From a virus, in the UHGV virus genome UHGV-0097092: a stretch of DNA of 44,628 nucleotides; one strand, 5' to 3'. Of the stretch, positions 20,245-24,422 are shown one piece after another. The notes below the pieces were generated by a model. The model was not told the DNA's origin. It worked only from the letters and a program-made list of their open reading frames with translations, and did no database searches. A program made the translations under genes and the position numbers. The first letter of the stretch is position 1. Each line of letters begins with the position of its first letter.

Positions 20245-21150
20245 ATGAGATCAGTCGCTTTCAAAAACATCTTCATCTATCGTCTTTCACGTGAAGTTAA
20301 CTGGAGTGCCGCAGAAGTATCCGATGCTCTTAGCAAATTCGTGTTTACTCCTTGCGGTTCTCAGGACACAGCTAAAGTCGGTTGGACACCTGTTCTTGGT
20401 GACAACCTCACCCATGAATACCAGGGTTTTCTGCTAATACAGCATAAGCGAGAAGAAAAAATTCTCCCCTCGCAGGTGCTCAAGGAAGAGTTGCAGAAAA
20501 AAGTCCTGAAACTCGAAGAAGAGCAAGCCCGCAAGCTGAAGAAAACGGAAAGAGACAGTCTTAAAGATGAAGTCCTGCATTCACTTTTGCCTCGCGCGTT
20601 CACGAGAAAATCACTCGCCAAAATCCTGATCGACCGCAGCAACCATCTGGTATTCGTTGAGGCAAGCAGCGCCAAAAAGGCAGAGGACCAGCTGGCTTTA
20701 TTGCGAAAGTCGCTCGGCAGCCTGCCTGTCATTCCATTCACACCACGCGAACCGCTGGAAATTACAATGACCGAGTGGTTTAAAAGCGGCTTCCCTGCCG
20801 GATTTACAGCAGGTGAAGACGCCACATTAAAGGGTCTGCTCGATAATGGTGGTGCCGTTCGCTGCAACAAAGTTGATCTACAGTCCGACGAGATTATGTC
20901 TCACATTGAGGCGGGGAAAGTAGCTACGACCGTTGCAATTAACTGGATGGACCGTGCGTCGTTCAGAGTCAACGATGATATGAGTATCAAAGCCCTGACA
21001 TTCTGTGATGATCTCTATGACCAGAACGACGATATCGACCGGGAGGATGTAGCACAACGATTTGATGCTGATTTCGTGCTCTTTACGGGTGAATTATCTG
21101 CACTGTTTAACGCGCTGGTGGAGGCCATTGGCGGTGAAGCAGAACGATAA
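20245..21150 (+). CDS. rdgC: recombination-associated protein RdgC
   Basis: full-length similarity to recalled E. coli RdgC ([68 protein letters not shown]). Confidence 0.85.
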
Positions 21151-21193
21151 TAACCGACCGCTTGTTGTGAGTCTTTGTGATTTTACGGGGGCA

Positions 21194-21814
21194 ATGGTTG
21201 CCCCCTGGCTGGAATACGGTGTCGATGCCGCTATCGTCGATCCACAGCACTTATCGACCAGTGACGAGCGGATGCAATCAGGTGCCGTTCTGACGCGTAT
21301 TAGTGCGATCATCGATAGCGATGAAGTATACGCTTTTCTCCGTAAGAATTTGCAGCGCATCGTGTTTCTGGCCGGGTTCCCACCGTGTACTGACCTGGCT
21401 GTTTCCGGCGCGCGCTGGTTTTCGGACAAGGCTAATAAAGATCCGGTTTTCCAGTTCAAAGCAATGCAGGTTGTCTGGCAGTGTTATGACATTGCAAAGA
21501 TGATCGGTTGTCCGTACATGATTGAAAATCCGGTCAGCAAAATATCGACATTCTGGCGTAAGCCAGATCACATCTTTCACCCTTACTTCTTCACTGCATA
21601 TTGTCAGGAAGATAACTACACCAAAAAAACATGCCTCTGGAGCGGCCAGGGCTTTGTCATGCCTGATGCCCTAATGGACGAATCATTAGGCAAGCCAGAT
21701 AACAGAATCCATGCCGCGCCACCAGGGCCTGACAGGGCTAATTTCCGAAGTGCTACTCCACATGGATTCGCAAAGGCAGTTTTCGAAGCGAATAAGGGGG
21801 TGCTCTATGAGTAA
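21194..21814 (+). CDS. short C5-cytosine methyltransferase-like protein lacking an obvious target-recognition domain
   Basis: about 206 aa with motif I-like LCDFTGAM, motif IV-like GFPPCTDLAVSGA, motif VI-like MIENPV; start uncertain (ATG 21194 or upstream GTG/TTG). Confidence 0.45.
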   Translation: MVAPWLEYGVDAAIVDPQHLSTSDERMQSGAVLTRISAIIDSDEVYAFLRKNLQRIVFLAGFPPCTDLAVSGARWFSDKANKDPVFQFKAMQVVWQCYDIAKMIGCPYMIENPVSKISTFWRKPDHIFHPYFFTAYCQEDNYTKKTCLWSGQGFVMPDALMDESLGKPDNRIHAAPPGPDRANFRSATPHGFAKAVFEANKGVLYE

Positions 21815-22712
21815 ATCTATAGCAAGCATAGCCATAGAAAAACAGGATACGATGGCTGAAATTAGCTATATGCGCACCATTCGGACTCCGGATGAATATG
21901 AGCGTCCGATATTCAAATGGGTAGGTGGTAAATTCTCAGAATTGCCTACAGTGCTTGAGCATCTACCACACGGTAAGCGGTTAATAGAACCATTCGTTGG
22001 TGGCGGTTCCGTATTTACGAATGCAGGATTTCGCCACAACCTGCTTAATGATATTAACGGTGACCTGATTAACTTCTATCAGACATTGCAGCGAGAAGGA
22101 CATTCGCTCGTCACGCTGTCATATAGTTTTTTCAAAAATTACAACAACGCTGACGCTTACCTCGAAGTGCGTGAGGCATTTAACAGAGGAAAATATGACC
22201 AGCTACATCATGCTGCCGCATTTTTGTACCTTAATCGTCACTGTTTTAATGGCGTAACGCGGTACAACCAAAATGGCGAGTTCAACGTGGGGTATGGCAA
22301 ATACAAAGCGCCCTACTTCCCACATGCAGAGATGGAGGCATTTTTGGCTGATGACGTACTCAAAAACACTTCCTTTGTATCAGGAGACTTTGCTAGCGTC
22401 ATCGAGGCGGCTGGTGAAGACGATGTGATTTTTTGTGATCCGCCGTATGAACCGCTTCCGGATACAGAGGGATTTACCAGCTATTCAGGAAATAGCTTCC
22501 GTTTCGATGAACAAAAACGGCTTGTATCACTGTTGGTGGATGCCCACCAGCGCGGCGCTAAGGTAGTGATAACAAATAGTGGTGCTCCAAACATCCGTGA
22601 GCTATATGAAGGAAACGGGTTTAAAGTACATCATATGGCAGCCAGACGGTCGGTTTCCTGCAAGGCGTCAACACGTGTAGTTGCTAACGATATAATTGCA
22701 ATAATGAAGTAA
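21807..22712 (+). CDS. dam: Dam-family DNA N6-adenine methyltransferase
   Basis: FKWVGGK, EPFVGGGSVF, FLYLNRHCFNG and DPPY motifs; 8-bp overlap with upstream gene. Confidence 0.8.
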   Translation: MSKSIASIAIEKQDTMAEISYMRTIRTPDEYERPIFKWVGGKFSELPTVLEHLPHGKRLIEPFVGGGSVFTNAGFRHNLLNDINGDLINFYQTLQREGHSLVTLSYSFFKNYNNADAYLEVREAFNRGKYDQLHHAAAFLYLNRHCFNGVTRYNQNGEFNVGYGKYKAPYFPHAEMEAFLADDVLKNTSFVSGDFASVIEAAGEDDVIFCDPPYEPLPDTEGFTSYSGNSFRFDEQKRLVSLLVDAHQRGAKVVITNSGAPNIRELYEGNGFKVHHMAARRSVSCKASTRVVANDIIAIMK

Positions 22713-22745
22713 AAAACGCCGCAGTAGCGGCGTTTACTTTTTCAT
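22711..22745. terminator. bidirectional rho-independent terminator between dam (+) and glnS (-)
   Basis: stem acgccgc/gcggcgt, loop agta, A-run on one side and T-run on the other. Confidence 0.55.
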
Positions 22746-22760
22746 GTGGCGAAATACCTA

Positions 22761-24422
22761 TTAACCTAACTTCGCCCAGGTATCACGCAGCCCAACGGTG
22801 CGGTTAAATACCGGTTTTTCCGCCGTAGAATGGCGGCTGTCGAGGCAGAAATAACCTTCACGCTCAAACTGGAATGCTTTACCCGCTACCGCTTCTTTCA
22901 GCGACGGTTCAGCAAAGCCTTGTTTGATCACCAGCGATTCCGGGTTAATCACCGACAGGAAATCATCCGCAGCACCAGGGTTCGGCACGCTGAACAGACG
23001 GTCGTACAGACGGATTTCAACCGGCAGCGCATGTGCCGCGCTCACCCAGTGAATAACACCTTTGACTTTACGACCATCTGCCGGATCTTTGCTTAAGGTG
23101 TCGGCGTCATAAGTACAGAAGATGGTGGTGATATTGCCTTCGGCATCTTTCTCCACGCGTTCAGCCTTAATGACGTAAGCATTACGCAGACGCACTTCTT
23201 TACCCAGCACCAGACGTTTGTACTGCTTGTTAGCTTCTTCTCGGAAATCGGCGCGGTCGATCCAAATCTCACCGCTAAACGGCACCTGACGGCTACCCAT
23301 TTCCGGTTTGTTTGGATGGTTCGGCATGGTGACCATTTCGCCTTCGCCCTGGTAGTTTTCGATAACCAGTTTCACCGGATCGATAACCGCCATTGCGCGC
23401 GGCGCATTTTCGTTGAGATCTTCACGGATGCAGGATTCCAGCGACGCCATCTCAATGGTGTTGTCCTGCTTGGTCACGCCGATGCGTTTGCAGAACTCAC
23501 GAATAGAAGCCGCAGTGTAACCACGACGACGCAGACCGGAAATGGTCGGCATACGCGGGTCATCCCAGCCTTCAACGTGCTTGTCGGTCACCAGCAGGTT
23601 CAGCTTACGCTTGGACATCACAGTGTATTCCAGATTCAGGCGCGAGAATTCGTACTGGCGCGGGTGAACAGGAATGGTGATGTTGTCCAGCACCCAGTCG
23701 TACAGGCGACGGTTGTCCTGGAACTCAAGCGTACACAGAGAGTGCGTAATACCTTCCAGCGCATCGCTGATGCAGTGGGTGAAGTCGTACATCGGGTAGA
23801 TGCACCACTTGTTGCCAGTCTGGTGGTGTTCAGCAAATTTAATACGGTACAGCACCGGATCGCGCATCACGATAAACGGTGAAGCCATGTCGATTTTCGC
23901 ACGCAGGCAGGCTTTACCTTCTTCAAAACCACCGGCACGCATTTTTTCGAACAGCGCCAGGTTCTCTTCAACGCTGCGGTCGCGGTACGGGCTGTTTTTA
24001 CCCGGTTGCGTCAGGGTGCCGCGGTATTCGCGGATCTGTTCCGGCGTCAGTTCATCAACGTACGCCAGGCCTTTATTGATCAGTTCGATCGCATAGGCGT
24101 GGAGCTGATCAAAATAATCGGAGGAGTAACGGACGTTACCAGACCAGTGAAAACCTAACCACTCTACGTCGTTTTTGATCGACTCAACATACTCGATATC
24201 TTCTTTTACCGGGTTAGTGTCGTCGAAACGCAGGTTGCACTGGCCTTTATAGTCCTGGGCGATCCCGAAGTTCAGGCAGATAGATTTCGCATGGCCAATA
24301 TGCAGATAGCCATTTGGTTCCGGCGGGAAACGGGTATGTACTGTGGTGTGCTTACCACTGGCCAGATCTTCATCGATGATCTGACGAATGAAGTTAGTCG
24401 GGCGGGCTTCTGCCTCACTCAT
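22761..24422 (-). CDS. glnS: glutaminyl-tRNA synthetase, near-identical to E. coli GlnRS as recalled
   Basis: 553 aa; N-terminus [52 protein letters not shown] and VMSKR class I motifs. Confidence 0.95.

Follow-up and report, generated by a model that had tools for sequence, protein, structure and literature searches.

The 44,628-nt virus genome UHGV-0097092 (this whole stretch is referred to below as the window) contains, directly upstream of a gene for a Dam-family adenine methyltransferase, a small gene at positions 21134 to 21814 that very likely encodes a complete, stand-alone cytosine-5 methyltransferase of DNA (C5-MTase) dependent on S-adenosylmethionine (SAM) and belonging to the minimal PHROG 757/K42-KarlJaspers-type family. 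DNA similarity identifies the window as an Escherichia coli plasmid prophage of the P1 family that resembles D6. Nothing about the gene is categorically new: its counterpart in phage D6, orf64, is annotated as a "putative DNA-cytosine methylase", and one member of the family has been characterised. The analysis shows how the gene is built, which family it belongs to, what fold it has, which residues are conserved and how its neighbourhood is ordered; beyond these, we infer the activity of the copy in the window, its expression from an operon and its role in anti-restriction.

Family membership, fold and a characterised homologue

The predicted 226-aa protein matched the PHROG 757 profile ("DNA methyltransferase") with an E value of 3.6e-76, its residues 2-213 aligning to profile positions 19-222 of 247. 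Homologues were abundant. More than 7,900, of about 215-235 aa, were found in a protein database clustered at 90%, tblastn located relatives in 1,591 phage records, and a profile search of 1.84 billion representatives returned 2,628 clusters at 50% identity, nearly all of 200-260 aa. The length of the protein thus fits the norm for stand-alone members of the family (about 200-260 aa). Although its members number in the thousands in phages and prophages, the family has no Pfam or NCBIfam model; in the BASEL phages it is annotated as "Dcm-like". In a comparison of folds, the structural model of the protein resembled the catalytic domain of C5-MTases.

The experimental link comes from phage K42 (Drexlerviridae), whose 711-bp "Dcm" is the trigger of retron Ec86/Eco1 and, when expressed alone, increased 5-methylcytosine (5mC) on multicopy single-stranded DNA (msDNA), as measured by liquid chromatography-mass spectrometry (bioRxiv 10.1101/2023.08.16.553469; Cell Rep 2024;43:114857). 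No rise in 5mC was seen with the quadruple mutant C82A/E128A/K175A/K176A (bioRxiv 10.1101/2023.08.16.553469). The 711-bp homologue in phage tuinn carries exactly C82, E128, K175 and K176, whose counterparts in the window protein are C85, E131, K164 and K165 (tblastn E 2e-32, ~37% identity, 94% of the query). The K42/KarlJaspers-type Dcm and the window protein are alike in family, size class (236 and 226 aa), alignment of the catalytic C, E and KK residues, stand-alone organisation and lack of a large target-recognition domain (TRD). They differ in host element, a lytic T1-like phage as against a P1-like plasmid prophage, and the K42-type protein carries 14 extra residues ahead of motif VIII and does not share the variable segment, so that specificity may differ.

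Variations on the minimal architecture were also encountered. One family member, P0342 (548 aa), has a Hint/LAGLIDADG intein directly after FPPC; inteins typically sit at critical active-site motifs. P0216, a Dmt-like canonical C5-MTase, likewise carries Hint and LAGLIDADG Pfam domains. A domain with the minimal-methylase fold is also embedded in some very large proteins from uncultured phages (BFVD A0A6J5NPY6, 1126 aa, and A0A6J5SE15, 1397 aa; Foldseek E 5e-9 and 5e-8, respectively), one of which is annotated with a helicase/UvrB N-terminal domain.

Conserved motifs of the minimal methyltransferase

Conservation was assessed over 96 diverse representatives (set A2) that are only 33-51% identical to the query. 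Seven residues were invariant: D36, C85, E131, P133, and the K164, T166 and W169 of TKKTCLW. Residues L14, C15, D16, T18 and G19 were conserved in at least 90% of alignment A1, as were R205, S206, T208, P209, G211, F212 and A215 in at least 90% of the 96 representatives. This is the pattern expected at the motifs with which a C5-MTase binds its cofactor and performs catalysis. The original prediction, made from the letters of the window, had recognised motifs I, IV (FPPC) and VI (ENPV). The latter two proved to be invariant or nearly invariant columns across these divergent representatives and are therefore not chance matches. Motif I is present too, as LCDFTG, but it lies outside the open reading frame (ORF) as first delimited. 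The absence of an obvious TRD was likewise confirmed, with only ~35 residues separating the motif VIII-like and motif X-like segments (Table 1).

In canonical C5-MTases the consensus is FxGxG for motif I, QxRxR for motif VIII and GN(A/S)V for motif X. The equivalent positions here hold LCDFTG, TKKT and RSATP (in the family, CDxTG, TKK and RSxTP), departing from that consensus. Compared with canonical PF00145 enzymes such as M.HhaI, M.HaeIII and E. coli Dcm, the window ORF shares the Pro-Cys nucleophile of motif IV, motif VI and, by its model, the catalytic-domain fold, but is 100-250 aa shorter and has no large TRD or small domain. It differs also from eukaryotic DNMT3A and DNMT3B (9-15% identity), whose catalytic domains of ~285 aa are parts of large chromatin-regulated proteins and bind DNA as oligomers.

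A fold match to PDB 8yf3 raised the use of carboxy-S-adenosylmethionine (Cx-SAM). This structure is CmoX, a phage DNA cytosine C5-carboxymethyltransferase of 333 aa that works with Cx-SAM and has phage cmoA and ligase genes alongside it (PMC12783734); none of these features was seen for the window ORF, and Cx-SAM use was ranked low. More broadly, it seems improbable that the protein applies C5-MTase chemistry to a different end, either transferring another group, such as carboxymethyl from Cx-SAM in the manner of CmoX, or acting mainly on a non-duplex substrate (single-stranded DNA or RNA).

Gene boundaries and start codon

The small gene had first been described as an ORF of about 206 aa, beginning at ATG 21194 and overlapping a Dam-family gene by 8 bp. 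Its frame and its stop codon (TAA, 21812-21814) were correct, as was the overlap with dam, which starts at ATG 21807 and whose product matches Dam-family profiles strongly (Table 1). The size was not. An in-frame upstream extension, for which a check had been proposed, adds 20 codons, motif I among them, and starts at GTG 21134. This GTG is most likely the true start and ATG 21194 is very probably a wrong one, for several reasons. All proteins in a 48-homologue alignment begin 6-10 residues before the conserved LCDxTG, and in the window ATG 21194 falls downstream both of this motif (nt 21173-21190) and of strand beta-1, predicted at aa 10-14. GTG 21134 is the start annotated in phage D6 and has a GGAGG Shine-Dalgarno sequence 9 nt ahead of it (Table 1); the only ribosome-site candidate at ATG 21194 is a GGGGG run 2 nt away. 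Relatives at 93%, 83%, 71% and 64% protein identity all start at the corresponding GTG or TTG, each preceded by a Shine-Dalgarno sequence rich in purines, with GGAGG itself kept in L010 and L011 and a purine-rich run (GGGGG) preceding the starts of L012 and L006. Finally, the ratio of nonsynonymous to synonymous substitution rates (dN/dS) against relatives was 0.12-0.18 over the first 20 codons and 0.08-0.11 over the whole gene. Two other starts were rejected: GTG 21167, which would cut strand beta-1, and ATG 21065, which adds 23 residues present in no homologue.

Public annotation of both genes is faulty, the chosen start removing the cofactor-binding motif and an intact dam being flagged as a pseudogene. 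In a 99% identical RefSeq plasmid (L005), the Prokaryotic Genome Annotation Pipeline (PGAP) reports a 206-aa "hypothetical protein" from the equivalent of ATG 21194. On the same plasmid (L005 10202-11041), it labels dam "incomplete; missing N-terminus" and begins it 66 nt downstream of the equivalent of ATG 21807, probably because the best reference proteins are fused, Dmt-type enzymes of ~760 aa.

Taken at face value, these annotations, with a 206-aa product deprived of motif I next to an apparent dam pseudogene, and the lack of curated family matches would suit a decayed or non-catalytic remnant, either a pseudogene or a DNMT3L-like regulatory subunit. We consider a remnant highly improbable: read from GTG 21134, the protein has every family-invariant residue and the normal length of the family, the whole-gene dN/dS is low, and D6 has an unbroken ORF, as do nearly identical copies in the RefSeq plasmid and in IMG/VR contigs.

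A terminator scan found a single strong terminator-like site, located after dam (22714-22735), so the rdgC homologue upstream, the small methylase gene and dam are probably transcribed together. The ATGAGTAA overlap probably couples translation of dam to that of the small methylase.

Relation to P1 Dmt and to adjacent adenine methylases

The original prediction suggested that the short ORF might be a split or truncated version of P1 Dmt, a bifunctional methylase of 754 aa, or else a minimal methyltransferase in need of a partner. The P1 dmt gene directly follows hrdC, so both elements place a C5-type and a Dam-type methylase in the same slot downstream of an hrdC/rdgC gene, and the Dam of the window is 69% identical to Dmt aa 478-753. 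The resemblance ends there. In P1 a single polypeptide combines a D12 Dam domain (aa 493-725) with an N-terminal portion holding a canonical PF00145 domain (best Pfam stretch aa 8-135; the C5 half is defined here as the first 470 aa), whereas the window has two overlapping genes, the first of which shows no detectable similarity to that half. Alignment of the small ORF to Dmt by BLASTP, a check that had been proposed, gave a best E value of 2.9. Nor was there a frameshift or lost sequence that would join the ORF to dam, each gene having its own Shine-Dalgarno sequence and start codon, and the two-gene arrangement is kept in the relatives at 93%, 83%, 71% and 64% identity. The ORF is accordingly no split or truncated Dmt; the short length is the norm of a different family. 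What survives of the link to Dmt is the shared slot between rdgC/hrdC and a Dam module, together with one fusion of the small family to a D12 Dam (see below). In evolutionary terms, the small methylase is a non-orthologous substitute for Dmt's C5 half, placed in the same genomic slot. The locus illustrates a modular swap, with a canonical C5-MTase fused to Dam in P1 and an unrelated minimal C5-MTase, in a separate gene probably coupled in translation, in D6-like elements.

A related possibility is a split, bifunctional Dmt-like enzyme of which the ORF forms one half and, having no TRD of its own, needs a complex with Dam for DNA binding or target recognition. The shared slot and the 8-bp stop/start overlap would fit such a dependence, as would the conservation of the trio rdgC, small methylase and dam, with overlapping gene ends, among D6-like elements as distant as 64% protein identity. 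Absence of similarity to the canonical N-terminal half of Dmt argues against it, as does the wider distribution of the family. A D12 Dam lay within ~6 kb at 6 of 80 viral loci with a relative, and five of these six were D6-like. An adenine methylase of an unrelated family, the T1-type Dam-like protein, is encoded by a gene abutting the small methylase at a further ~13 of the 80, a recurrence that could be taken as support for partnership; at ~61, however, we detected no adenine methylase within ~6 kb, a count made with a narrow D12 search model that could miss divergent Dams. The gene also stands alone in the lambdoid nin region of Cronobacter prophages, between ninB and ninE/ninF, it lies near helicase genes in T1-like phages, and the tuinn copy has no annotated Dam in its flanks of 3 kb. 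A natural fusion to a D12 Dam does exist, in P0241 (563 aa; L013 218-1909), but it is known from a single 2-kb contig. The K42 enzyme is also active when expressed alone; overall, we regard this dependence on Dam as improbable. The minimal size foreseen by the original prediction is real, and the need for a partner probably is not. Dam is a frequent companion, with no obligate tie to the small enzyme, in a pairing that resembles a methylation cassette.

Several details of these pairings deserve mention. In P0241 the small C5-MTase family occupies aa 2-253 and the D12 Dam aa 303-546, a Dmt-like architecture with a different N-terminal module; the metagenomic contig is 2,057 bp long, and an assembly or sequencing error is possible. 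The T1-type Dam-like gene ends ~3 nt before the small methylase gene in L057, L061, L063, L064, L065, L067, L068, L071, L075 and L080 and lies directly downstream of it in L055 and L086. In the IMG/VR contigs with this pairing the small methylase is ~42-44% identical to the query, and the T1-type family is unrelated to the D12 class. Pairing of a cytosine with an adenine methylase has thus arisen with two different adenine methylase families.

Strength of the C5-methyltransferase assignment

A number of observations weigh against a C5-MTase encoded as part of an operon. Scans of the ORF with Pfam and NCBIfam gave no hit at E values up to 1, the protein falling below the Pfam reporting threshold for PF00145 (DNA_methylase). 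A phmmer search of PDB sequences and two family-profile searches of the same database returned nothing significant. In motifs I and VIII the sequence departs from what is usual in C5-MTases. Experimental data come from a homologue that is, by alignment, only ~37% identical; its CCWGG site was assumed from E. coli Dcm, and a dcm+ host was used in the experiments (bioRxiv 10.1101/2023.08.16.553469). In the literature searched we found no methylation data for D6-like elements and no methylome data for the family. Comparison by hhalign with a profile of the Dmt N-terminal half gave a probability of 0.14%, from narrow profiles (Neff, the effective number of sequences, 2.2 and 1.3), a null that is weak with regard to remote homology and solid against a recent split; the homologue search begun with that half had returned only close Dmt relatives, and no diverse canonical profile came from it. 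Lastly, a promoter scan upstream of rdgC found nothing convincing.

The original prediction was to be abandoned if its motif matches proved spurious on profile search. That search did fail, yet the assignment holds despite the null profiles, because the fold comparison, the invariant catalytic residues and the characterised homologue all support it. Among the PDB profile searches the C5-MTase with the lowest E value was DNMT2 (0.86), aligned over motifs I to IV; DNMT2, ornithine decarboxylase and KtrA were rejected as chance-level matches.

Proposed mechanism and role

By analogy with C5-MTases, C85 of FPPC would attack C6 of a flipped-out cytosine, E131 of ENP would protonate N3, and K164 and K165 would stand in for the arginines of motif VIII. 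Holding the cofactor would fall to the LCDxTG loop, to D36, which would bind its ribose, and to the RSxTP helix. Target recognition would have to rely on the segment of ~35 residues, which is why the target site is probably short. The variable segment at aa 170-204 is the best candidate for a specificity determinant. It carries a 28-residue insertion in D6-like relatives at 64-71% identity (P0006, P0007 and P0009; L006 4001-4765 and L012 3001-3753), and the predicted local distance difference test (pLDDT) score of the model is lower at about aa 191-210.

Given co-transcription and coupled translation of dam, the phage-plasmid would make its cytosine and adenine methylases together. The small enzyme would methylate the DNA of the element and that of the host, and its most likely role is methylation of self-DNA against host restriction, as proposed for P1 Dmt. 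A bolder proposal, which we find rather unlikely, is that it methylates a very short or relaxed cytosine context and so gives D6-like phage-plasmids broad protection from restriction. Under this proposal, recognition of DNA might involve DNMT3-like self-association or contact with the co-translated Dam, as hinted at by the natural fusion and by the recurrent adjacency to two unrelated families of adenine methylase. If this were true, methylation-sensing defences, retron Eco1 among them, could as a side effect come to detect D6-like elements. Which sequence a C5-MTase of 226 aa methylates, and by what means it recognises DNA, bears on the host range of phage-plasmids and on retron sensing.

Genomic context and feature coordinates

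Between 20245 and 22760 the window shares 96.5% DNA identity with Escherichia phage D6, a P1-related plasmid prophage, and the gene order is the same in both: baseplate gene "5", an RdgC-family gene (similar to P1 hrdC), orf64, orf63 and a convergent glnS. In 72 complete E. coli genomes, coverage of a 20-kb stretch around the locus reached 80% or more, and among the matches listed the best were all plasmids of ~90 kb. Coordinates are collected in Table 1.

Table 1. Features of the small methylase locus in the window.
Feature	Position	Strand	Basis
rdgC/hrdC homologue, first gene of the probable rdgC-MTase-dam unit	20245..21150	+	PF04381 5.1e-103; D6 annotation: similar to P1 hrdC
GGAGG Shine-Dalgarno of the small methylase, 9 nt before GTG 21134, within rdgC 3' end	21120..21124	+	sequence read
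Small C5-cytosine-methyltransferase-like gene, GTG start, 226 aa (D6 orf64)	21134..21814	+
Motif I-like LCDFTG (aa 14-19), predicted cofactor-binding loop after strand beta-1	21173..21190	+	aligns to SLFDGSG of K42-type Dcm; model strand E10-14
VDPQH (aa 35-39), D36 at end of strand beta-2, motif II acidic position	21236..21250	+	D36 invariant (96 representatives); model strand E31-35
Motif IV FPPC (aa 82-85), presumed nucleophile C85	21377..21388	+	C85 invariant; F82, P83 at least 90%; aligns to C82 of K42-type Dcm
Motif VI ENPV (aa 131-134)	21524..21535	+	E131, P133 invariant; N132 at least 90%; aligns to E128 of K42-type Dcm
Motif VIII-like TKKT (aa 163-166) in place of QxRxR	21620..21631	+	K164, T166 invariant; K164/K165 align to K175/K176 of K42-type Dcm
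Short variable segment (aa 170-204) at canonical TRD position	21641..21745	+	28-residue insertion in P0006, P0009; T1-like homologues differ
Motif X-like RSATPHGFAKAV (aa 205-216), start of C-terminal helix	21746..21781	+	conserved residues at least 90%; model helix H210-224
AAGGGGG Shine-Dalgarno of dam, 6 nt before ATG 21807, within small methylase gene	21794..21800	+	sequence read; kept in L011, L010
8-bp overlap ATGAGTAA, dam start and small-methylase stop	21807..21814	+	sequence read
Dam-family (D12 class) N6-adenine methyltransferase, 301 aa (D6 orf63)	21807..22712	+	PF02086 5.5e-57; TIGR00571 1.4e-74
Bidirectional terminator-like hairpin between convergent dam and glnS	22714..22735	.	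9-bp stem, 6 G-C pairs, T-rich tails on both strands

Identity to D6 was mosaic over the three-gene unit (window 20245-22712 against L001 8001-10468). Only one base, a synonymous one, separates the 681-nt small methylase gene from its D6 copy; in the flanks, 52 codons differ in rdgC and 22 in dam. This distribution of differences suggests a recent recombination event that exchanged the small-methylase segment.

A search of the window for the P1 C1-operator consensus gave 0 matches at up to 3 mismatches. Downstream of dam and convergent with it, a full-length glnS (glutaminyl-tRNA synthetase, 553 aa) occupies 22761-24422 on the minus strand; the gene is present in D6 and many E. coli plasmids as well. 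It looks like accessory cargo of the phage-plasmid, since it is absent from a relative at 83% identity (L010), in which dam is followed directly by parA-like and stability genes. Annotations of L005 and D6 also show a toxin gene of the HigB family, next to a helix-turn-helix (HigA-like) gene, among the tail genes; transferred from L005 4514-5179, the pair would fall at approximately 16.2-16.9 kb of the window on the minus strand.

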